Source of the DNA: Phycisphaerae bacterium
Lineage (GTDB): Bacteria > Planctomycetota > Phycisphaerae > UBA1845 > Fen-1342
Length of the DNA: 64,000 nt
Direction: 5' to 3'
Assembly: GCA_963675745.2 (NCBI GenBank)
Contig: CAXXWX010000006.1
Coordinates: 226,183 to 290,182, forward strand
Shown: positions 36,503-48,899 of the stretch, one piece after another
Position numbering within the stretch: position 1 is the stretch's first letter
How the letters are laid out: each line of letters starts with the position of its first letter
Notes under the pieces: generated by a model
What the model saw: only the letters and a program-made list of their open reading frames with translations
What the model was told of the DNA's origin: nothing
Databases searched by the model: none
Made by a program: the position numbers and the translations under genes

Positions 36503-38668
36503 ATGGAAACCCGTCGACTCATAGTTGCGATGATCGCCGCCCTGACGGTGTTCTTCGCGTATAACTTCGTCCGCGCCCGGTTCTTTCCACCCAAACCGGT
36601 GCAGCCGACGGCGGCGGCGCCCCAGCCCGCGGCGCCGATCCCGGCCGTCAGTGCAACTCAGCCGGCATCAGGACCGACCACCAATGCCGTTGCTCTGGGG
36701 CCCGAGTACGTATTCACGCAGGGCCCGAGCGTGGACAACGTCACGCTGGGCGGCGGTCCGCGCGACAAGCTCACCGCGACCTTGTCGCCCGTCGGGGCGG
36801 CCATGGAGAGTCTGTGTCTGACCGAGCGGGTCAAGCCGGAGGCGACAGCCCGGTATCGCTATCGCGCCGCGCCCCGCAAGCCCGAGCCATACCAGTTGCT
36901 CTATTCCGTCGAAGACCCGGTCTTACGGCGGACCAGGCGCTCATACGAGACCCCCCGCATCTGGATCGGCGACCAGCCACGCTCGCTGGAGAGCCTCACG
37001 TGGCGGATGTTGCCGAGCGACCCGGAGAGCCCGGATCAGAAGGTCGCGTTCCAGACCACGCTCCAGGCCGCCGAAGATCCCGGCGCCGCCGTGTTGCGCA
37101 TAACCAAGACGTATACGCTGATACCCGATCAGCCGCTGATCGACCTGTCGCTGGAAGTCGAGAACCTCGGCGAAAGCCCGATTGCCGTGGCCCTGGAACA
37201 GGATGGCCCGCTCGGAATTCCGCGCGAGCAGATGCAGTACGACATGCGGCGGTTGATGACGGCGTTCGACGATGGTGAAGTGGTTACGCTGGCCCACGTC
37301 AAAACTCGCGCCAACCTCGCCGTCGGGGAGCCGGTGAAACTCCCGCCCAAAACGAGTACACAGCGCTTCATGTGGGCACTGCTATCGAACCGGTACTTCG
37401 GCGTCTTCACCAGACCTCTGCCCGAGGAAGGTGAGTCGCAGCAGACATTTGTCTTGTCGGTGTCCGGCACCGTCGTTGTACCCGGCCCCGCGGACCACAC
37501 AGGTGATGGCGACCTCATCTCACAGATTGTCACAACGGCGCTGATGATCAACCCGCGTGACGCGAAGCGAATCTCTTTTGAGATCTACGCCGGATCAAAG
37601 AACGCGGACGACCTTGCACTGGTGAACCCGGCTTATGCCGACGAAACCAAGCTCGGCTATGGCATCGCCCAGTTCGCCGACCGCACGTGCATGTGTACCT
37701 TCGGCTGGCTCACCCAGGGGATGTCGTGGCTGCTGCACGGAATCCACGCGGTGGTGCGCAACTACGGCGTGGCCATCATCATTCTGGTCATCATCATCCG
37801 CACGTTGCTGCATCCGCTGACCGTCTTTCAGCAGAAGTCGATGTTCCGCACCCAGGAAGGCATGTCGCGAATCCAGCCCAAGATGCAGGCCATCAAGGAG
37901 AAATACGCCAACGACAAGGCCAAACAGAACCAGGAGACCATGAAGCTCTTCAGCGAGGAAGGCGTCAACCCGATGGCGAGCTTCGTTTCCATGATCCCGA
38001 TGTTCATCCAGATGCCCATCCTGGTGGCGATGTGGATCTCGCTCAACGGCGACGTGGCCCTGCGCCATCAGCCGTTTGTCTTTTGGATGAGGGATCTATC
38101 CTCGCCGGACGCGCTGATAACCTTCGGCGGTGCGGGCTTCACCATTCCCATCCTCGGGCAGATTCTGCCCTCGTGGTTTGCGCACATACCGATGCTCAAC
38201 GTGTTGCCGATTCTGATGGGCGTCAGCATGTACGTGCAGCAGAAGTACATGCCCAAGCCCGGCCAACAGGCCCGCCGTGATCAGGCCCGCAAGAGCGCAG
38301 AGTCTGGCGGCAATGTCTCGCAGTTCGAAGCCCAGATGAAGCAGCAGCACATGATCGCGGTCATGATGAGCTTCATGTTCCCGCTGTTCTTTTACTACAT
38401 GCCATCGGGGCTCAATCTGTATTGGATGTCGACGAACGTGTTCGGCATTTTTGAAACGCTGGTGATCCGGCGACAGCTCGAAGCCGAGAAACAGCGGAAG
38501 AAGGACAAACCGCCACCAGACAAGCCGCGGAAGAAAGGGCCCCTCGCGCGTTTCTTCAGCCACCTAGCCGAGCAGGCTGAGGAGATTCAGAAGAAGGCCG
38601 ATCAGGCCACCAAGCTCGAATCCGGCCGCAAAGGCAAGGATGGCAAGGATGGCAAGAAGGGCAAGTGA
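36503..38668 (+). CDS. yidC: Membrane protein insertase YidC
   Basis: N-terminal TM, large periplasmic domain, NYGVAIIIL, QPKMQAIKEKY, GVNP, QMPI, PSGLNLYW. Confidence 0.93.
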   Translation: METRRLIVAMIAALTVFFAYNFVRARFFPPKPVQPTAAAPQPAAPIPAVSATQPASGPTTNAVALGPEYVFTQGPSVDNVTLGGGPRDKLTATLSPVGAAMESLCLTERVKPEATARYRYRAAPRKPEPYQLLYSVEDPVLRRTRRSYETPRIWIGDQPRSLESLTWRMLPSDPESPDQKVAFQTTLQAAEDPGAAVLRITKTYTLIPDQPLIDLSLEVENLGESPIAVALEQDGPLGIPREQMQYDMRRLMTAFDDGEVVTLAHVKTRANLAVGEPVKLPPKTSTQRFMWALLSNRYFGVFTRPLPEEGESQQTFVLSVSGTVVVPGPADHTGDGDLISQIVTTALMINPRDAKRISFEIYAGSKNADDLALVNPAYADETKLGYGIAQFADRTCMCTFGWLTQGMSWLLHGIHAVVRNYGVAIIILVIIIRTLLHPLTVFQQKSMFRTQEGMSRIQPKMQAIKEKYANDKAKQNQETMKLFSEEGVNPMASFVSMIPMFIQMPILVAMWISLNGDVALRHQPFVFWMRDLSSPDALITFGGAGFTIPILGQILPSWFAHIPMLNVLPILMGVSMYVQQKYMPKPGQQARRDQARKSAESGGNVSQFEAQMKQQHMIAVMMSFMFPLFFYYMPSGLNLYWMSTNVFGIFETLVIRRQLEAEKQRKKDKPPPDKPRKKGPLARFFSHLAEQAEEIQKKADQATKLESGRKGKDGKDGKKGK

Positions 38669-39495
38669 ACGGCACCGCCAACGAAACGCGTAGCAACACC
38701 GACCTGTCGGCTCTCCGTGTGCTGGCCGCGCGCGCCGCGCGCGCTGGCGGCCGGATCGCCCGGGAGCGCCACGCCGGCACGCTTGATGCGCGCCTCAAGC
38801 CTGACCGCAGTGAGGTCACTGACGCGGACGAGGCTGCCCAGGCGGCGGTGATCGCGGTCATACACGAGGCGCGCCCGGATGACGCGGTGATCGCAGAAGA
38901 GCAGCTCGCGCTCGAGCCAGCGCTGCCGCCCCCGTCGAACAGCAGCCCCTGCTGGGTCATCGACCCAATCGACGGCACGCGCAACTACGTCCGGCGAATG
39001 GGCGATTACTGCACGAGTGTGGGCGTGCTGCTGGAAGGTGTGCCGGTGGCGGGGGCTATTTATGACCCGCAGCGCGACGTGCTCTATTCTGCGTGCGCCG
39101 GCGGGACGCTATTGCGCAATGATCAGACCCTGCCGGCGGCCGACGGCGACGCGCCGCCAAACCGCAGCCTGGTCGTGGGGATTCCAAGCACCGCCGCCGG
39201 TCCGGTGCGCGACTACGTGCTAGACTGGTTTGACCGCTGCATCACGCGCAATTTCGGATCAACGGCGATCCACCTCGCGCTGGTCGCCACCGGCCAGCTC
39301 GACGGGGCCATCGCCGACAATCCAAAACTCTGGGACCTGGCCGCCGGTTGGGTGCTGATCACGGCGGTTGGCGGGCAAGTGACCGGCCCGGACGGCGCAG
39401 CCTTGTTCCCGATCGATGTTGGCGCATACCGGTGCGAGGAGATGCCCCTGGTCGCCACACATCGCAGAGCCGGCCAGCGCCTCAGACACCTCTGA
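38665..39495 (+). CDS. Inositol monophosphatase family protein
   Basis: VTDADEAAQ, IAEE, WVIDPIDGTRNY, WDLAAG. Confidence 0.9.
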   Translation: MNGTANETRSNTDLSALRVLAARAARAGGRIARERHAGTLDARLKPDRSEVTDADEAAQAAVIAVIHEARPDDAVIAEEQLALEPALPPPSNSSPCWVIDPIDGTRNYVRRMGDYCTSVGVLLEGVPVAGAIYDPQRDVLYSACAGGTLLRNDQTLPAADGDAPPNRSLVVGIPSTAAGPVRDYVLDWFDRCITRNFGSTAIHLALVATGQLDGAIADNPKLWDLAAGWVLITAVGGQVTGPDGAALFPIDVGAYRCEEMPLVATHRRAGQRLRHL

Positions 39496-39507: not shown

Positions 39508-39557
39508 TGTTCCCCGTTCCCTGTTCCCCGCTCCCTGTTCCCCGTTCCCCGTTCCCT
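39508..39557 (-). repeat. GGGAAC(A/G) heptamer tandem array
   Basis: About seven GTTCCC(C/T)-type units on + strand. Confidence 0.8.
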
Positions 39558-39597
39558 AAACAAAGACCCCCGACGCGTTGAGCAGACGCGTCGGGGG
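39558..39597 (-). terminator. Intrinsic terminator of PEP-CTERM gene A
   Basis: Minus strand CCCCCGACGCGT-CTGCTCA-ACGCGTCGGGGG-TCTTTGTTT. Confidence 0.85.
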
Positions 39598-39653
39598 ATT
39601 GTGAGCAGTCAGGGTTGCCAGGCGGCACGTCCCGGCAGTCTTTTGAGAATCGA

Positions 39654-40526
39654 CTAGCGACGGCGAATCAACGTCGCCAGCGGGAGCAGCAGCAACAGCG
39701 TGCTGGGCTCCGGCACTCCGCTCAGACGGAACGCCATATCGACTGAATCCCAGCCCGCCGGCAGCAGACCTTCATAAATGTCGGTGCCATAAGGAATGCC
39801 ATTGGGGTCAAGGTTGTTGTTGTAACCCCAATGCGCCCACGGAGCGAAGCCGAAGGTGTCGGATTGGAACGCCGCGTCGTCGCCCCAGTTCAGGCCATAG
39901 TTACGGAATCCCCAATAGAAGTAATCGCCGTAGCCATCGTCGACCATGACGCCCTGGATGCTGAGCCAGAGCACCTGCTCCGTCAGACCCTGGTCAAACC
40001 ACTGATCTTGAGGCAGGTTGATCTTGTACCCTGAGGTGAAGTCAACGCCGTTCGTGTGGTAGAAGTCGATCGCCTGCCAACCGATGCCGTTCTGGTCTGC
40101 CGGTTCCACGTCGTACTGGTACAGCAACGTGCCGGGCATGCTCTCGCTGACGCCCGGCACCGCCGGCACGTCGGTGTAGAACGAAACGCGGATCTTGTCC
40201 AGGTATGTATCACCGTAGTACGAGAACCCGGGGAACTCGATGTCGGTGATGAACTGCTCGCTGGGCAGTCCGCTGCACAGGAAGTCGTCAACTGTCTGGG
40301 CATCACTGGGCGTGTCGTTGTCGATCCAGCTTGCGGCTGAATTACCACTGAGATCAAACTCGCCCTGCTCCCACTTGATATCGTGGGGCCAGTCTCTCGG
40401 CTGTGGCGACGTCCCGAAGGCGCTGTTCTGCGCAAACATGCCTTGCGGCACGGCGCCGGGTGGTCCTGCCAAGGCGGGCGCTGCCACCACGGCCAAGACC
40501 AATGACATTAAAGCCAATCTCCTCAT
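39654..40526 (-). CDS. PEP-CTERM sorting domain protein A
   Basis: GGAGGAG RBS; signal peptide MRRLALMSLVLAVVAAPALA; C-terminal VPEPSTLLLLLPLATLIRRR. Confidence 0.92.
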   Translation of the reverse strand: MRRLALMSLVLAVVAAPALAGPPGAVPQGMFAQNSAFGTSPQPRDWPHDIKWEQGEFDLSGNSAASWIDNDTPSDAQTVDDFLCSGLPSEQFITDIEFPGFSYYGDTYLDKIRVSFYTDVPAVPGVSESMPGTLLYQYDVEPADQNGIGWQAIDFYHTNGVDFTSGYKINLPQDQWFDQGLTEQVLWLSIQGVMVDDGYGDYFYWGFRNYGLNWGDDAAFQSDTFGFAPWAHWGYNNNLDPNGIPYGTDIYEGLLPAGWDSVDMAFRLSGVPEPSTLLLLLPLATLIRRR

Positions 40527-40676
40527 CACGTTCTCCTCCATCTGACTGTGGTGGGATGCGGGCTTTGCGCCGACAGTGGAATGTCGTGTGTCATTCCCTG
40601 TACGGCTGCGTTAGCCCCCAGCCCAGACCCTCTCCCGAAGCACACGACCGTGCGAGAACGCCCCGCAGATTTTCAG

Positions 40677-40903
40677 GCTCGCGGCTTCGCCTCTTCACCT
40701 CTCTACTACAGCGCGCCCATGTCCCTGAAACCAAACCCGCGACCACCACTTGGTCGTCGCGATCTACACAGCCTCCATTTGGCCAACGGCAATAGCGACC
40801 CGATCGCGCAGGCGCGCCTCCTCTCCGTACGTCCAGCATCCCTGGTTTATGCGATCACGCCGATATGGAATTGGCCCCATGGAAGGCATCCACCACCTCC
40901 TCC
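40677..40903 (-). ncRNA. Candidate structured 5' leader RNA, copy A
   Basis: Colinear homology with 41989-42213 and conserved hairpins with compensatory changes; lies between a sigma70 promoter and a PEP-CTERM gene. Confidence 0.55.
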
Positions 40904-40924
40904 CACTCTATGCCCATAAGCACG

Positions 40925-40954
40925 ATGATAGGCCTGCGTAGGCCGAAATGTCAA
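40925..40954 (-). promoter_or_regulatory. Sigma70 promoter TTGACA-N18-TATCAT
   Basis: Consensus -35 preceded by an A-tract; positionally conserved with 42232-42261. Confidence 0.7.
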
Positions 40955-41037
40955 GATTTTTTCAGCCGCCACGAAGTGTCGACAATATACGGGACATCGT
41001 GCAGAATTGCCCACGAAGTCCATCGCCAATTCGCGCT

Positions 41038-41074
41038 CCGTTCCCCGTTCCCCGTTCCCCGTTCCCTGTTCCCT
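41038..41074 (-). repeat. GGGAAC(A/G) heptamer tandem array
   Basis: About five GTTCCC(C/T) units. Confidence 0.8.
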
Positions 41075-41116
41075 AAAAAAAGGACCCCCGACGCGTTGAG
41101 CAGACGCGTCAGGGGG
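41075..41116 (-). terminator. Intrinsic terminator of PEP-CTERM gene B
   Basis: Near-identical to 39558-39597; minus strand stem followed by TCCTTTTTTT. Confidence 0.85.
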
Positions 41117-41169
41117 TTGTGAGCAGTCAGGGTTGCCAGGCGGCACTTCCTGGCAATTCTATTAAGAGT

Positions 41170-41916
41170 CTAGCGACGGCGAATCAGCGCCGCGCCGAGA
41201 ACCAGCAGCAAGAACGAGGCCGGCTCGGGAACCAACTCATACTCCCAGAACAGGGCCATTTCGTTGTAGTCGAACCCACCAATGTCCGCACCACCAAGGC
41301 CTATGACGCCAACACCGCCGAGTTCGTTGGTCGCGTACGGGCCTTCGAGCGTAAGGGGGAATGTGCCGAGCAAGCCGGTGCTGTCCCAGGCGGCCTGGCC
41401 ACTCTGCAGCACGTTAATGCCGGTGAACCCGGTCAGATCCGGCGCGAGCGTGTCGACGCCGGCTCCCTGAATGCCCACGTCCATTCGCCAACTGTTGTAC
41501 ACGACGCCATTCGGGCTGAGCGCACCGACCGGCACCCACGGACTGCCGTCGACAGTGTAGATGTTGGCCTGCACAAAATAGGTGTTCGGGGCGGTCATGG
41601 TTTCGGTGAACGCAATCTCCATATCTGCAGCGGTTATCAGATTCGCGCCGTTGTCCGTCGAGGTGCCGGCCACAAACTGGAAGTTGTCCGGATAGTCGTC
41701 GAGCCAAAACGCGTTGATCCCATCCTGCACCATGGCAACCGCGTCAAACGTGTCACCCTCAACCGAGCGACCCACATTGCCGGACATCTCCGAGGCGCGG
41801 ACCAGTGCCGCCGGTGGCGCAATCCCGTCGCCCATATCCTGTGCCGTGAGTGGCGGGAGCGCCAACGCCTGCGTGGCGATGGTGAGCACGCCAACCAATA
41901 CGAGTGCTTTCCTCAT
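41170..41916 (-). CDS. PEP-CTERM sorting domain protein B
   Basis: AGGAG RBS; signal peptide MRKALVLVGVLTIATQALA; C-terminal VPEPASFLLLVLGAALIRRR. Confidence 0.92.
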   Translation of the reverse strand: MRKALVLVGVLTIATQALALPPLTAQDMGDGIAPPAALVRASEMSGNVGRSVEGDTFDAVAMVQDGINAFWLDDYPDNFQFVAGTSTDNGANLITAADMEIAFTETMTAPNTYFVQANIYTVDGSPWVPVGALSPNGVVYNSWRMDVGIQGAGVDTLAPDLTGFTGINVLQSGQAAWDSTGLLGTFPLTLEGPYATNELGGVGVIGLGGADIGGFDYNEMALFWEYELVPEPASFLLLVLGAALIRRR

Positions 41917-41988
41917 CTCCTACTCCTCTTTCTCCATAATGTGAACCCTCGAGCCGCGCCGCGGGACCATCCCGCGTTTTCTTCCCGA

Positions 41989-42213
41989 GCTCGTGGCTTC
42001 GCTGTTTCTCCACGCAGCGCACCGCACCTGGGCCGAACAGCAAAACCACGGCACCCTCCTCGGTGCCATGATCCAGACGTCCTCCATTCGACCAACGGCA
42101 GTAGCGGTCCGGCCGCGCCGGCGCGCCTCCTTTCTGCACGTCCAGATTTCCTGGTCTGTGCGATCTAGCCCACGTGGAATTGGACAATGGGAAGGGACGT
42201 CCCTTCCTCCTCC
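41989..42213 (-). ncRNA. Candidate structured 5' leader RNA, copy B
   Basis: Homologous to 40677-40903 with covarying stems. Confidence 0.55.
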
Positions 42214-42231
42214 GCTTCAACTACAAACTCG

Positions 42232-42261
42232 ATTTTAGGCATCGGCGTGTCGGAATGTCAA
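42232..42261 (-). promoter_or_regulatory. Sigma70 promoter TTGACA-N18-TAAAAT
   Basis: Consensus -35 and 5/6 -10; same spacer length and position as copy A. Confidence 0.7.
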
Positions 42262-42335: not shown

Positions 42336-42758
42336 CTAGCCGCGGCCGATAACCTTGATCAGAAGCCGCTTACGACGCCCGCCGTCAAACTCGCCGTAGA
42401 AGATCTGCTCCCAGGGCCCCAGATCGAGTCGCCCCGCCGTCACCGCCACGACAACTTCACGCCCCATGACTTGACGCTTGAGATGGGCGTCGGCGTTGTC
42501 CTCGCCTGTCAGATTGTGCCGGTACTGCGAGGTCGGTGCATGCGGCGCGAGCTGCTCAAGCCATTTCTCGTAGTCAGCATGCAGACCTGGTTCGTCGTCA
42601 TTGATGAACACGCTGGCCGTTATGTGCATCGCATTCACCAGCACCAGGCCCTCCTGAACGCCACTATCGGCGATGGCCTGCTGCACCTGCGGCGTGATAT
42701 TGACGAATCCCCGGCGCCCGGGGACGTTGAACCAAAGCTCCTTGCGGTGTGATTCCAT
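42336..42758 (-). CDS. yjbQ: YjbQ/UPF0047 family protein
   Basis: [44 protein letters not shown]. Confidence 0.92.
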
Positions 42759-43002: not shown

Positions 43003-43024
43003 GCGTCAACGACGTGAGTTTTTG

Positions 43025-43082
43025 TTGTATCGCCCTCGGCACGGTTGTAGGATTACAATAGTAAACGGCTTGAACCGGTTCA
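43025..43082 (+). promoter_or_regulatory. Putative promoter TTGTAT-N17-TAGGAT with downstream perfect palindrome TGAACCGGTTCA (43071-43082)
   Basis: Perfect 12-bp palindrome matching the sites at 12461 and 12615. Confidence 0.5.
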
Positions 43083-43141
43083 TTGCACATGGGCGTTGCA
43101 ACCGGCTTCTGGCCGGCGGCGACGCTCTGTGGAGATTTCGC

Positions 43142-45511
43142 ATGCACCGTGCCCATCGCTCGGCCGTCATCGTGGCGCTCACGCTACTGCTGTACCCCTC
43201 GCTCACGCTCGCCCAGCCGGCAACCAGACGTTGTCCACGTATGTACACCATCAACTACGACCCCTGGATCGAGGCTCAAAGCAAACGGCTCCACGCGAAC
43301 AACATCGCACCGTGGAACGACCCGGTCTGGCTCAACGGCGAATACGTCGCCGACCTGCAAGCCTCCAGCCACGAGCTGGTCAACTTCCGGCAGACCGTCG
43401 AGCTCAGCGTCGATGAGTATCCGCTCCAGGAGGATGGGTTCCGCTACGACGACGTTGTTTACATGAACTGCGTCTCGACGTGGAGCGGCTGGCACACCGG
43501 GACCATGGTCAACTACAAGTACATCACGCGCAATTTCGATCTCGCGCGCCGTGTCGACATCGGCGAGATCGATGAGGTCAACAATAACTGCGCCCCCTAC
43601 TTCGGCTACTGGGAAACCACCATGTGCGGCTATGGGGGATACTGGTGCAACTCTGGAGCGCAACAGCGCATCCCCAGCGAGAACGTCTTTGTTATTCTGG
43701 GTTTCAACTATGAGCGCGGCGTGGCGGAGATGCTGCACAGCAATTGCCACCGCGACGAGTCCATCATGCGCCAGGTGTACGGATCCTGGAGCATGACCAA
43801 CCCCCAGCACCTGTGGGATCGCTACACGCTGAACATCGGCGTCTCCGGCTCAGCGGGGCACACGGTCTTCGGCATCGGCAACTGCCATTTCCCGGCAAAC
43901 GGTGACTCCGATTACGACTACGCGAATACCCAGGAAGTGCAAAGCACGGCAGGTCTGTGGCTGACCATGGATCCCAACGACCCCGATGATTTCCCGGATC
44001 TGACCGGTGCGCCGCAGACTGTCTCGCGCGCCACGTGGGGTGGCCCTGATTATCACCGCACTTACATGAACTGGTACTACTGGCACCACCCGCACTTTGA
44101 CGGAACAAACTCGCAGGACGGCCGTACGCGGCTCAACAACTGGTGGGAGTATATTTTCAACTTCAATGCCCACTACGACAGCAACGGCCACGACAACACG
44201 GTCAACGGCGCGCCGCCGGCCGCACAGCCGTACGCCGGCCCCAGCGGCAACATCAGCAATAACGGGACCGACGACTGGCGCCCGGGGATAAACGCCGCCG
44301 GTCGCGTGGTCTGGGCGGGGCTGGACGGCTTTGGTGGGATGACGATCTGGTCATCCAACGCCGACGGCAGCGATCTGACCGACGTGTCCAACTTCACGTT
44401 GTTTGTCAACGAGCTGCCGCAGATCAACGCTGTCGGGCAGGTCGTCTGGCAGCTTTTCGACGGCAAGACATTCTGGGTTCTGACCGGCTCGGCCGACGGT
44501 TCGGGCTCGCAGAGCTACTTCAAGGAAGGGCCGGGCCATAATTGGCACGCCGACATTAACGACAGCGGCCGAATCGTCTGGGAAGCCTGGGATGGCGAGG
44601 ACTACGAGATCTACAGCGCCAACGCCGACGGCACGGACATTACGCGCCTGACGGACAACACTCACGGTGGTAGTGGCAAGCCGCGCGATGACATGTGGCC
44701 ACGGATCAACAACGCCGGCCGCGTGGTGTGGATGGGCTATGACGGGGTCAACTGGGAGATATTCGCGGCGGACGCCGACGATCCGGGCTCGGTCATCAAC
44801 ATCTCGAACAACAGCTATGAGAACGAGTACCCGCAGATCGGCGCGGGAGGCAAGGTGGTCTGGCAGGCCTGGATCAGCAGCACCAACGCTGAGGTCTATT
44901 CCGCCAACGCCAACGGCACCGGCGTCCAGCGTCTGACGTCGAATGCGGTGATGGACTGGTGGCCGCGCGTCAACACGGCGGGCGACGTTGTCTGGCAGCA
45001 ACGCAACACGGATTGGGAGATCGTGCTGAACGGCACACCCATTACCGCCAACGCAACCCACGACATGCACCCGGTTATTGATGATGACGGGCGCATCGTG
45101 TGGTTTGCCTGGGACGGCACGGACTGGGAGATTTACAGCTACGAAGGCGGCACGATCTACCAGATCACCGACAACGACTACGATGACCGCGCGCCCGACA
45201 TCGCCGCCGGCCAGCCAATCGCCTGGCACGGCGAGAGTGAGCTCGGCGATCCGAACGAACCCGGATACGTGGGCCCCACCACAGAGATTTTCACGACGGC
45301 GTCGATGGCGTTCGCGCCGGGAGATGTTAACTGCGACGGCTTTGTGAACAACGCCGACATCGACCCGTTTGTCCTCGCGCTGTCGAACCACGGCGGCCCG
45401 GGCGGCTATCTGGAGACGTACCCCGGATGTGACAACGCGGACGTGAACGGTGATGAAGCAGTCAATAACGCGGACATTGATCCGTTTGTGGCATTGCTGG
45501 CGGGCGAGTAG
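43142..45511 (+). CDS. Secreted protein: uncharacterised N-terminal domain + TolB-like beta-propeller repeats + dockerin-like C-terminus
   Basis: Signal peptide; NYERGVAEMLHSNCHRDES; repeated PxINxxGRVVW...DG...EI; GDVNCDGFVNNADIDPFVLAL. Confidence 0.85.
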   Translation: MHRAHRSAVIVALTLLLYPSLTLAQPATRRCPRMYTINYDPWIEAQSKRLHANNIAPWNDPVWLNGEYVADLQASSHELVNFRQTVELSVDEYPLQEDGFRYDDVVYMNCVSTWSGWHTGTMVNYKYITRNFDLARRVDIGEIDEVNNNCAPYFGYWETTMCGYGGYWCNSGAQQRIPSENVFVILGFNYERGVAEMLHSNCHRDESIMRQVYGSWSMTNPQHLWDRYTLNIGVSGSAGHTVFGIGNCHFPANGDSDYDYANTQEVQSTAGLWLTMDPNDPDDFPDLTGAPQTVSRATWGGPDYHRTYMNWYYWHHPHFDGTNSQDGRTRLNNWWEYIFNFNAHYDSNGHDNTVNGAPPAAQPYAGPSGNISNNGTDDWRPGINAAGRVVWAGLDGFGGMTIWSSNADGSDLTDVSNFTLFVNELPQINAVGQVVWQLFDGKTFWVLTGSADGSGSQSYFKEGPGHNWHADINDSGRIVWEAWDGEDYEIYSANADGTDITRLTDNTHGGSGKPRDDMWPRINNAGRVVWMGYDGVNWEIFAADADDPGSVINISNNSYENEYPQIGAGGKVVWQAWISSTNAEVYSANANGTGVQRLTSNAVMDWWPRVNTAGDVVWQQRNTDWEIVLNGTPITANATHDMHPVIDDDGRIVWFAWDGTDWEIYSYEGGTIYQITDNDYDDRAPDIAAGQPIAWHGESELGDPNEPGYVGPTTEIFTTASMAFAPGDVNCDGFVNNADIDPFVLALSNHGGPGGYLETYPGCDNADVNGDEAVNNADIDPFVALLAGE

Positions 45512-45545
45512 CAGCACTTCAGGAGTGTGCGAGAGGAGCCTTGGC

Positions 45546-48500
45546 ATGATTCGATGGAATTGGGCAGCGTTGGGCGTGGCGAGCTTTGTGATATGCGGCG
45601 TCGCAAGGGCCCAGCCGGCGGTGAAGCAGTATCCGCGTTTCACGACGATCAGTTACAACCCGATCCTGACAAGCCAGGGCAATCAGCGCCTGCACGAGTT
45701 CTGGAATTGGTGGAACCCGCGCACCGAAGTGGACGCGTTTATCGAAGGCATGCAGATCGGCTCGCACGAGCGTGTAAACATGCGCCTTACGTATTACCTC
45801 GAGATGGACTTCTGGCCCATCAAGGAGGATGGGTTCCAGTACACGGAGGCCGAATACCTCTCTGGCAATTGGCACATGCCTGATGGCGTTGATTATGCCG
45901 CCATCATACGTAACTACGACCTTGCCCGACGCGTTGATCGCGGTGAAATCGACGAGACGGCGATCTACGGTGCGCCGTATTTCGGCTATTGGGAAACGAC
46001 GATGGCCGGCTACAACGGGTTTTACTGCAATTCCGGCCCGCGTCCGTATGTCGCCTCGTCGCAGATTTTCTGCGTAACCGGGTGGAACTACGAGCGTGTG
46101 GTCTCGTTGCATGCGACCGGCCATCGCGCCGAGTCGACCATCGAGCTTGTTTACAACGGCTGGGACGTCAACGGCAACCGCACGATCTTTGATCGCTTCG
46201 GCTGGAACATCGGCCAGACGACCATCTCGTCGGTCTACGGCATCGGATCGGCACACCTGCCCGCGAATGGCGACGACCACTACGACTACGCCAATCCGCA
46301 AACAGTCGACAGCTACGCCCCGCAGTGGGCCACCATGGATCAATACGTCGGCAACGCATCTTTCCCCGACCCCAATGGGCCCATCGAGCAGGTAAACCGC
46401 CAGACCTGGGGGCTCGGCGAAAGCGGCAATTACGAATTCGAGTACTTCAAGTGGTGGTACGGTCACATGCCCCACTTCGACGGCACCAACAACTTCGACG
46501 GCTATAGCCGCCTGAACAACTGGTGGGAGTATCTCTATAACTTCAACCAGCATTCCGAGAGCAACGGCGACTTTGAGCGCGGCGCCCCCGCGCCGCCGGC
46601 GGTGCCCTACGGCGTGACGCCCGTCACCATCACAAGCAACAACGTCGATGACTGGACCCCGCGCGTAAACGACAACGGCCGCATGGTCTGGAAGGCCGAT
46701 GACGGTTTCGGCGGGCGCGTCATCTGGTCGGCCAACACCGACGGCACGGATATCACCAACGTGTCCAACTTGACGCTCTACCTCAACGACGCGCCGCAAA
46801 TCAACAATTCAGGGCGGATCGTCTGGCAGCTTTTCGACGGCAAGCGCTTCTGGGTGGTCACCGGCAACAGCGACGGCAGCCTCACCGGTCAGGCCTTCCT
46901 GTCCGAAGGCGACGGTAATAACTGGCACCCGGATATCAATGACAGCGGACGGATCGTCTGGGATGCCTGGGACGGCGAGGACTACGAGGTCTTCAGCGCC
47001 AATGCCGACGGCACGGATATTGTCCAGATCACCAATAACGTCTACAGCGGCACGGGCAAGCGCCCCGACGACTGTTGGCCGCGGATCAACAATGATGGCC
47101 GGGTCGTCTGGATGGCCTACGACGGCTACAACTTCGAGATCCACAGTGCCAACTATGACGGCAGCGACTTCCAGCAGATCACCAGCGGCAGCTACCACAA
47201 CGAGTATCCGCAGATCAGCGATTCGGGCAAGGTAGTCTGGCACGCCTGGCACTCGACCACCAACGGCGAGGTCTACTCGGCCACTCGCGCCGGTGCCGGT
47301 ACCAGCTACACGGTCACCCGCCTGAGCAACAACGCCGTGAACGACTGGTGGCCCCAGGTCAACGATGCCGGGGATGTCGTCTGGATGCAGCGCGACGGCA
47401 ATGACTGGGAGGTATTGCTGAACGGCGCCTACATCACCACGAACAACACGCATGACCAGTATCCGGCGATCGACAACAACGGCCGTATTACGTGGCAGGG
47501 GCTCGATGGCGAGGACTGGGAGATCTACGTTTACGACGATGGCACGATTTACCAGCTCACCGACAACGACTACGACGACTGGGCGCCGCAGCCGATGACC
47601 GGCGGTGTGATTGTCTGGCACGGTGAGAGCGTGTTTGGCGACCCGAACGATCCCGGCTACACCGGACCGACCACCGAGATCTTCAGCGCGGTAACCGAAG
47701 ACCTGTTGCCGCCGACGGTCGAATCCGCCGCCTCGGTCGGAGATGCGACGCGCGTCACCGTGATATTCTCGGAGGCCCTCGACCAGGTTACGGCCGAGGA
47801 TCAATTGAACTACGCTGTCGACAATGGCATCGGCGTCAGTGCGGCATCGCTCGCACCGGACCAGCGCACCGTGAGCCTGACGACGTCCGAGCTATCGATG
47901 GGTGTGACCTACACGCTGACGATCAACGATGTCGAAGATCTGGCCGGCAACCCGATCGCGCCGGGCACACAGCAGACGTTTGATCATCAGGGCGCGCAGC
48001 GGGTCACCGATGGACTTGTCGTCCTCTACGATTTTGCCGAGGGTGCCGGCACAACCGTGCATGATGTGTCGGGCGTCGGTTCGCCGATGGACCTCGAGAT
48101 CAGCGACCTGGGTGCGGTCACGTGGACCGAGGACGGCCTGCGCTTCGACTCCGCCGCCCGCGCGGAAACACTGGGTGCCGCCACCAAGGTTATTGACGCC
48201 TGCCAGGCCACCAACGAGATCACGCTTGAAGCCTGGATCATGCCGACACAGGCCACGCAGTCCGGGCCGGGCCGCATCATCACCATCGCGCGCACGGCGA
48301 ATACGCGCAACGTCACGCTGGGCCACGGCTTTGACGCCGGCTCCGCGGGAGATTGCTACGCCGCCATGATCCGTACCTCGGCGGATATCGACGGTCTGCC
48401 CGGGCTCGTCACCGCACTGGGCACGGCGACGACGAATCTGCAACATGTCGCCTTCACGCGCGACGGCATCGGCACCACCGCGATCTACATCGACGGGGAC

Positions 48501-48899
48501 CAGTCAATCACCGGATACGCCGGTGGTGATTTCTCCAATTGGCTGGATACCAGCAACGACCGCTTCATGCTCGGCAATGAGTACACGCTGTCCAGGCCCT
48601 GGTATGGCGAGTACCGGCTGGTTGCCGCATATGATCGCGCACTGAATCCAACCGAGGTGCAGCAGAATTTCCAGGCCGGCCTTGGCGAGGCGCCGACGTA
48701 CGATCCCGGAGACACCAACTGCGACGGGGCCGTAAACAACGGTGACATCGATCCGTTTGTTCTGGCGCTGTCGAACTACGACGGCCCGGGCGGATATCTC
48801 GAAGCGTACCCCGGCTGCAACAATGCCGACGTGGATGGTGACGGCCTGATCAACAACGGCGACATCGACCCCTTCGTCGCCATCCTGACAACCAAGTAA
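45546..48899 (+). CDS. Secreted paralog: same N-domain + propeller + Ig-like + LamG/concanavalin-like + dockerin-like C-terminus
   Basis: GAGGAG RBS; NYERVVSLHATGHRAES; VTVIFSEALD...VEDLAGN (Ig-like); LYDFAEGAG...TLEAWI...HVAFT...YDRAL (LamG); GDTNCDGAVNNGDIDPFV. Confidence 0.88.
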   Translation: MIRWNWAALGVASFVICGVARAQPAVKQYPRFTTISYNPILTSQGNQRLHEFWNWWNPRTEVDAFIEGMQIGSHERVNMRLTYYLEMDFWPIKEDGFQYTEAEYLSGNWHMPDGVDYAAIIRNYDLARRVDRGEIDETAIYGAPYFGYWETTMAGYNGFYCNSGPRPYVASSQIFCVTGWNYERVVSLHATGHRAESTIELVYNGWDVNGNRTIFDRFGWNIGQTTISSVYGIGSAHLPANGDDHYDYANPQTVDSYAPQWATMDQYVGNASFPDPNGPIEQVNRQTWGLGESGNYEFEYFKWWYGHMPHFDGTNNFDGYSRLNNWWEYLYNFNQHSESNGDFERGAPAPPAVPYGVTPVTITSNNVDDWTPRVNDNGRMVWKADDGFGGRVIWSANTDGTDITNVSNLTLYLNDAPQINNSGRIVWQLFDGKRFWVVTGNSDGSLTGQAFLSEGDGNNWHPDINDSGRIVWDAWDGEDYEVFSANADGTDIVQITNNVYSGTGKRPDDCWPRINNDGRVVWMAYDGYNFEIHSANYDGSDFQQITSGSYHNEYPQISDSGKVVWHAWHSTTNGEVYSATRAGAGTSYTVTRLSNNAVNDWWPQVNDAGDVVWMQRDGNDWEVLLNGAYITTNNTHDQYPAIDNNGRITWQGLDGEDWEIYVYDDGTIYQLTDNDYDDWAPQPMTGGVIVWHGESVFGDPNDPGYTGPTTEIFSAVTEDLLPPTVESAASVGDATRVTVIFSEALDQVTAEDQLNYAVDNGIGVSAASLAPDQRTVSLTTSELSMGVTYTLTINDVEDLAGNPIAPGTQQTFDHQGAQRVTDGLVVLYDFAEGAGTTVHDVSGVGSPMDLEISDLGAVTWTEDGLRFDSAARAETLGAATKVIDACQATNEITLEAWIMPTQATQSGPGRIITIARTANTRNVTLGHGFDAGSAGDCYAAMIRTSADIDGLPGLVTALGTATTNLQHVAFTRDGIGTTAIYIDGDQSITGYAGGDFSNWLDTSNDRFMLGNEYTLSRPWYGEYRLVAAYDRALNPTEVQQNFQAGLGEAPTYDPGDTNCDGAVNNGDIDPFVLALSNYDGPGGYLEAYPGCNNADVDGDGLINNGDIDPFVAILTTK

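Follow-up and report, generated by a model that had tools for sequence, protein, structure and literature searches.

Two tandem PEP-CTERM genes and their leaders

Within the window, a 64,000-nucleotide stretch of a contig from a Phycisphaerae bacterium, two genes that we call B (41916-41170) and A (40526-39654) lie in tandem on the minus strand, each with a separate terminator. Their PEP-CTERM-like tails scored 15.7 (B) and 13.8 (A) against TIGR02595, narrowly missing the cut-off of 16. A homolog search recovered three other proteins for gene B and 69 for gene A, the majority of the latter carrying PF25470, which we take to be DUF7901; two gene A homologs bear the source label Phycisphaerae. 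The host genome comprises 5.2 Mb and is 91% complete. Contigs from two sequencing runs of one sample, possibly the source sample, cover both leaders, with no variant letters listed. The locus contains:

42336..42758, minus strand: upstream neighbour, UPF0047 protein (Pfam PF01894, E 5.5e-38), outside the duplicated frame
42232..42261, minus strand: predicted promoter B, TTGACA-N18-TAAAAT, 11/12 consensus matches
41917..42225, minus strand: leader B, about 309 nt, with a start predicted by the position of the -10 box
41989..42002, minus strand: GCGAAGCCRCGAGC block of B; clear A/B similarity stops shortly past it
41170..41916, minus strand: PEP-CTERM gene B, 248 aa, rare family, body unrelated to A
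41076..41155, minus strand: 3' UTR element of B (scan and alignment), with a small hairpin, a CTGACTGCTCACAA linker and an intrinsic terminator at 41115-41085
40925..40954, minus strand: predicted promoter A, TTGACA-N18-TATCAT, 11/12 consensus matches
40527..40918, minus strand: leader A, about 392 nt, with a start predicted by the promoter; a 41-codon ORF, absent in B, lies behind GGAGG box 1
40677..40690, minus strand: GCGAAGCCRCGAGC block of A, from sequence comparison with B
39654..40526, minus strand: PEP-CTERM gene A, 290 aa, PF25470 on most homologs
39558..39638, minus strand: 3' UTR element of A, 74/81 positions identical to B, terminator at 39597-39567
38665..39495, plus strand: convergent inositol monophosphatase-family gene, marker of the syntenic slot

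A preliminary description of this DNA proposed that both genes have TTGACA-N18 promoters, that these imply leaders of about 390 and 310 nt, and that a core of about 230 nt aligns between the leaders. All three proposals held: our promoter scan returned five promoter-like sites, compared to 1.0 +- 0.9 in shuffled sequence, the implied leaders are 392 nt (A) and 309 nt (B), and the cores are 71.8% identical over 209 nt (E 5e-20). The 179 gap-free columns of the core contain 58 differences, which are clustered rather than evenly spread (P about 0.03). The GCGAAGCCRCGAGC motif, also described previously as conserved downstream, occurs exactly twice in the genome. No third copy of the core was found in the 5.2-Mb host genome, which thus contains exactly two.

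Past both terminators (39510-39560 and 41030-41075) are short tandem repeats of the GGGAACGG type, with similar arrays on many host contigs. At 43022-48899 the window encodes a tandem pair of large secreted proteins that, by eye, resemble each other in their N-terminal and repeat regions and have a dockerin-like tail; for the first of them, Pfam gave no match at E <= 0.001. Elsewhere in the host genome, two PEP-CTERM genes occur, together with the DNA upstream of them, in duplicate copies that are about 100% identical (C22:4424-6194 and C2:110735-112505), which reflects either a duplication of recent date or a binning artefact.

Predicted fold and Shine-Dalgarno-like boxes of the leader core

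The elements of the core, all on the minus strand, are:

42206..42213: GGAGG box 1 of B, GGAGGAGG, predicted to pair with CCUUCC at 42195-42190
42195-42190: CCUUCC anti-box of B, paired with GGAGG box 1 in the predicted ensemble
42142..42154: stem (i) of B, CCAG-N5-CUGG (helix model)
42126..42134: GGAGG box 2 of B, GAAAGGAGG, complementary over 9 nt to the host 16S 3' end and not followed by a start codon
42090..42109: stem (ii) of B, with the CUAYUGCCGU loop (helix model)
42081..42085: GGAGG box 3 of B (motif count)
42036..42072: hairpin (iii) of B, tail UUUGCUGUU, -18.6 kcal/mol, weak terminator-like
40896..40903: GGAGG box 1 of A (motif count), with the 41-codon ORF behind it
40881..40886: CCUUCC anti-box of A, predicted to pair with box 3
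40833..40845: stem (i) of A (helix model), displaying GGA in its loop
40817..40821: GGAGG box 2 of A (motif count)
40781..40800: stem (ii) of A (helix model)
40772..40776: GGAGG box 3 of A (motif count)
40729..40761: hairpin (iii) of A, tail GGUUUGGUU, -15.6 kcal/mol, weak U-rich tail

Stems (i) and (ii) are as originally described, the latter with one compensatory and one one-sided change. Hairpin (iii) does occupy a common position in both leaders, but the claim that its sequence is almost entirely different was not upheld: a 7-bp common helix contains four invariant pairs, two compensatory changes and one one-sided change. In the long-range pairing (iv), which was proposed to covary, the shared part, CCUUCC/GGAGG, is invariant and the extensions are out of register. 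The proposed competition between (iv) and a 5' local hairpin is possible in both copies, but the preferred partner differs: the predicted ensemble favors the long-range pairing in A (pair probability 0.8) and the 5' hairpin in B (about 1.0).

Hairpin (iii) resembles a weak terminator. Its U scores are 3.5 (A) and 4.4 (B), compared to 4.9-5.1 for the genes' own terminators, which have energies of about -23 to -25 kcal/mol; among the elements behind the 57 PEP-CTERM-like ORFs of the host, its U tail ranks from the median to just above the 75th percentile. A consensus terminator scan of the region did not call it. A candidate antiterminator helix was at chance level (P 0.3-0.5), and the longest match between the 3' UTR and the leader was 6-7 nt, not above shuffled sequences.

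The four-helix model contains 21 pairs, 95% of which are paired in both copies, with three compensatory and two one-sided changes. With two copies, this does not exceed chance, as 62 of 500 shuffles reached the observed count; the compensatory count was also ordinary in 300 simulations (P 0.27-0.33), and for hairpin (iii) P was 0.09-0.17. On the 179 gap-free columns, the consensus energy was -50.7 and the structure conservation index (SCI) 0.70. Among 300 simulations for each null, the fractions that reached these values (energy/SCI) were 0/0 when differences fell at random positions, 0.033/0.047 when they fell at the same positions and 0.003/0.007 after column shuffling. The signal is borderline, with P 0.03-0.05 under the strictest null for a segment chosen after the fact, and was absent in all five tests of other leader pairs (P 0.27-0.77). 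As energy and SCI beat the nulls while the compensatory counts are ordinary, the data give modest support to a shared fold but not to covariation.

The first 195 nt of both leaders are rich in GGAGG, with four occurrences in A and five in B compared to 0.7 expected (P 0.003 and 0.001), and none on the opposite strand. Three of these Shine-Dalgarno-like boxes align between A and B, and none has a conserved start codon. No start codon follows at a distance of 4-12 nt from boxes 2 and 3 of A or from boxes 1 and 2 of B. The host 16S 3' end is complementary to GAAAGGAGGUG. In the predicted ensemble, boxes 1-3 are mostly paired (unpaired probability 0.07-0.48), which would limit access by 30S subunits.

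Such boxes also occur in front of related genes. In 17 family-A leaders (24 hand-picked non-redundant homolog loci, minus nine that had no promoter or met the contig start, plus A and B), we counted 16 internal AGGAGG sequences, ribosome-binding sites excluded, compared to 2.7 +- 1.7 expected; they were present in 10 of the 17 leaders, and five of the 16 came from A and B. Internal GGAGG was absent from five of the 15 other leaders. In the host genome, AGGAGG occurs in 8 of 44 PEP-CTERM upstream regions compared to 61 of 1375 others, counts that derive from crude gene calls, include two identical duplicates among the eight and may contain mis-set starts.

The family-A leaders have other features. 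A GCGTTCYG motif recurs in those of loci L008, L010, L011, L012, L020 and L029, and GCGTTCC is present in 5 of 17 compared to 0.6 expected; leader A contains a variant at about 40655-40661, and leader B is without the motif. At about +45 to +100, the L013 leader contains a long hairpin followed by a U run that, by eye, is more clearly terminator-like than hairpin (iii). Nine loci (L008, L010, L011, L012, L014, L018, L019, L021 and L029) are contigs of 1.0-1.2 kb that consist of one family-A gene and 200-480 nt upstream, a shape that would fit a single transcript.

Shared 3' ends and the search for further copies

The preliminary description overlooked that A and B also share their 3' ends, which are 82% identical over about 190 nt. 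Identity is 46/63 in the coding tail, 6/15 in the spacer and 74/81 in the 3' UTR element and terminator. A blastp comparison of the two proteins detected similarity limited to the last 35 residues. Among the 57 PEP-CTERM-like ORFs of the host, A and B are the sole pair that shares both ends without protein similarity. Conservation is thus higher in the 3' UTR element (74/81 identical) than in the leader core, and CTGCTCA occurs in both the single-stranded linker and the terminator loop of this element, possibly as a protein-binding site or as a trace of recent gene conversion.

Two other genomes of the family contain tandem PEP-CTERM pairs with a shared promoter, leader and 3' frame, so that this design was present in two of 14 loci examined:

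L105, 6352-7748 and 7854-9250: pair in genome G252
L107, 4429-5656: pair in genome G433

In G252, identity between the genes is 80% across 692 nt on the upstream side and 92% across 135 nt on the downstream side, and the bodies are 31% identical over 113 aa. In G433, identity is 69% across 342 nt upstream and 77% across 91 nt downstream, and blastp found no match between the bodies. These leaders are unrelated in sequence to the A/B core, and R2, a covariance model built on the two core copies and 21 pairs (one pair is unpaired in both), did not match them. For the G252 pair, 22 of 24 windows are 0.63-0.93 alike; this similarity extends upstream of the promoter, and there is no structure signal. 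The 455-nt leader of the G252 type has relatives in L022 and L030, with double changes in 8 of 131 predicted pairs.

In the congeneric genome G001, the slot behind the monophosphatase gene contains one PEP-CTERM gene with a third, unrelated body. Its 3' UTR retains CTGACT(G)CTCACAA immediately ahead of a terminator whose sequence differs (L177, near 2479-2491); 2 of 54 controls gave a higher alignment score. The last 110 nt of its leader resemble those of B, with 0 of 54 controls scoring as high. The leader core was not found in this slot, and G002 and G003 have no PEP-CTERM gene there. Taken together, the shared 3' ends, the recurrence of the design and the G001 slot indicate that the similarity between A and B is first of all homology of the frame. 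Neutral duplication had been named at the outset as an alternative source of the leader conservation; since A and B share their 3' ends and the shared-frame design recurs in two other genomes, duplication applies.

The statement that the core belongs to no known RNA family stood up: the window has no Rfam 15 match at the gathering threshold, and the conserved cores have none at E <= 10; a single match on the other strand, in the distal part of leader A, is at chance level (E 8). Resemblances by eye to c-di-GMP-I, c-di-AMP, glmS and lysine RNAs were not supported by Rfam. The covariance-model search that had been proposed found no homolog in 71 family genomes. At E <= 0.2, R2 gave 15 weak matches in 13 of these genomes compared to about 14 expected (best 0.0014), and all 13 matches that were inspected lie in long ORFs. 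Blastn detected the core in 0 of 40 relatives. A pattern of the core allowing three mismatches matched 1 of 278 order genomes (a control pattern matched four), and the exact pattern gave 35 matches in 185,579 genomes, near the chance estimate, of which none is titled planctomycete, none extends and the best reaches 12 bits with R2. No match was present in viral contigs. Five other family genomes encode full-length close homologs of A (E below 1e-90), with upstream regions that do not contain the core. The nearest genomes are distant (50-57% amino acid identity in a neighbour gene), many are incomplete, and in the genome search only first-look candidates are scored. Across 48 loci with homologs of A or B, the best R2 match (9.3 bits, E 0.5) was on the opposite strand of the L020 leader. 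A palindromic operator, GTSSAATTSSAC, prompted by this match, was discarded, as it has one intergenic site in the genome and no enrichment before PEP-CTERM genes.

Interpretation and comparison with known systems

These data support the view that the core is a folded, non-coding mRNA leader with no Rfam match. The resemblance between the leaders comes mainly from copying of a promoter-leader-terminator frame that was given a different surface-protein gene. The core is best filed as a real, genome-restricted leader: a long structured surface-protein leader inside a reusable expression frame. By analogy with the leaders discussed below, we put about even weight on its being a lineage-specific structured leader that would serve mRNA stability or translation, and the leaders most likely stabilize or tune their messages rather than sense a small molecule.

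A and B would each be a copy of a single PEP-CTERM frame, which runs from a sigma-70 promoter through a long leader, the sorting signal and the 3' UTR to a terminator, and would have arisen by tandem duplication. Between the shared ends, the now unrelated protein body was presumably exchanged or diverged beyond recognition, and the core would be a lineage-specific folded 5' UTR under moderate selection. It would most likely act without a ligand, its hairpins and start-less GGAGG boxes binding 30S subunits or a GGAGG-binding protein. Bound boxes might shield the message from decay or hold ribosomes near, so that the mRNA of an abundant surface protein would persist for long and be translated well. 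Output may in addition be tuned by the CCUUCC segment and by the weak hairpin (iii). Points against this role are the mostly paired state predicted for the boxes, the missing RNase J match in the host and the absence of a structure signal from the other leader pairs.

A neutral relic, in which the leaders match as remnants of the duplication and the core is a tolerated spacer with no special function, is an unlikely alternative that nonetheless deserves weight. Compensatory counts at chance level, the lack of a third copy in the genomes searched and the G252 pair, alike in most windows with no structure signal, are what such a relic would leave. It does not predict that consensus energy and SCI beat three nulls, that differences cluster (P 0.03), that three GGAGG boxes are kept in place or that 179 columns are free of indels.

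We consider it rather improbable that the core is an attenuator- or riboswitch-like switch controlled by a ligand or protein, in which CCUUCC would switch partners between box 1 and box 3 (or the true ribosome-binding site) and hairpin (iii) would stop transcription near +190 as long as no ligand, protein or ribosome changes the fold. Both alternative pairings can form in both copies, the pairing of hairpin (iii) survives two compensatory changes and its U-rich tail is within the genome's range. However, the consensus scan did not call this hairpin, the antiterminator helix is at chance, the upstream ORF exists in A only and the ground state differs between the copies. The attenuator-like element first proposed has in its favor the weak U-rich tail present in both copies; conservation of an antiterminator or leader peptide was not seen. 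Aptamers usually span families. The lack of an Rfam match and of homologs in the 71 family and 278 order genomes, several of which contain gene A homologs, therefore argues against a riboswitch aptamer, and only a small part of the probability of this alternative falls to a small-molecule riboswitch. The proposal of a new riboswitch-like motif is unsupported because no third copy was found in the genomes searched, covariation is at chance level and duplication applies.

Another reading, which we regard as quite unlikely, is a lineage-restricted RNA switch with three decoy Shine-Dalgarno boxes and one anti-box, where a ribosome or protein on a decoy would decide the fate of the weak terminator and the switch would travel in a reusable cassette whose surface-protein bodies are swapped by recombination at the conserved ends. 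If true, it would be a new ribosome-sensing attenuator.

It is doubtful that the leader is controlled by CsrA, or that a separate small RNA of about 190 nt, from the promoter to hairpin (iii), sponges CsrA or 30S subunits. The host genome encodes csrA, the loop of stem (i) of A displays GGA, and GGA is enriched in B (12 compared to 6.2, P 0.001). Against this, csrA is clustered with fliW and flagellin, an arrangement dedicated to flagellin; GGA by itself shows no enrichment in A (P 0.17), nor does ANGGA within the first 195 nt of A or B (P 0.10 and 0.12), and the enrichment is one of GGAGG. Conservation of the core as a leader peptide or small protein, which had also been raised as a possible source of the similarity, is very improbable: the 41-codon ORF of A does have a well-placed Shine-Dalgarno sequence and a stop just before hairpin (iii), but B has GTC in place of its ATG, its frame contains three synonymous and 35 changed codons, and none of the six frames shows third-position bias or any other coding pattern.

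For these bacteria, our results suggest that the long regions upstream of PEP-CTERM genes are transcribed as leaders with many decoy ribosome-binding boxes, and that reuse of a promoter-to-terminator frame is how surface proteins diversify. They also call for caution, as two-copy "motifs" before unrelated PEP-CTERM genes can stem from the duplication of a frame and need not mark a shared regulatory family. Literature searches gave no description of such leaders in planctomycete PEP-CTERM genes.

Like the riboswitches and attenuators in Rfam 15, the core combines alternative pairings with a terminator-like hairpin in a 5' leader; unlike them, it matches no family, is conserved within one genome and shows no significant covariation. 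CsrB/RsmZ-type RNAs and CsrA-bound leaders are GGA-rich and carry GGA in hairpin loops. The core is likewise GGA-rich, with one GGA in a hairpin loop and about 190 nt to a hairpin with a U tail, but GGAGG rather than loop ANGGA is enriched, and csrA lies beside fliW and flagellin.

Agaisse and Lereclus reportedly described in 1996 the STAB-SD of Bacillus thuringiensis cryIIIA, a strong Shine-Dalgarno sequence located in the 5' UTR with no start codon. Such a start-less strong sequence is present within the 5' UTR here (GAAAGGAGG in B), with the differences that there are three boxes, mostly paired in our predictions, and that the host encodes RNase E/G while its 91% complete genome has no RNase J match over the TIGR00649 cut-off. 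In Bacillus, RNase J is reported to be blocked by ribosome-bound Shine-Dalgarno boxes (PMC5737220). Two further papers offer stabilizing precedents: the slpA 5' UTR of Lactobacillus, with a stem-loop and a 15-min half-life (PMC10221546), and the aprE leader of Bacillus together with STAB-SD (PMC11805744). As with slpA and aprE, a long folded leader precedes an exported protein; a sequence relation to the A/B core is not expected.

A parallel for the frame itself is in Haft et al. (2006; PMC1569441), who describe PEP-CTERM genes as single-gene units with >200 nt of non-coding DNA upstream, and a modular spread of the sorting domain, which is more similar within than between species, as for a module of recent expansion. 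They also note that long regions for which no regulatory element is known lie upstream of many non-proteobacterial PEP-CTERM genes, and that more motifs await discovery outside the class. Their PrsR-type site, a DNA enhancer plus sigma-54 motif with a TTTACA-type motif 1, is confined to Proteobacteria. Here the predicted promoter is of the sigma-70 type, which implies that the upstream region is a transcribed leader, and the shared module, unlike the one described there, comprises promoter, leader, 3' UTR and terminator.
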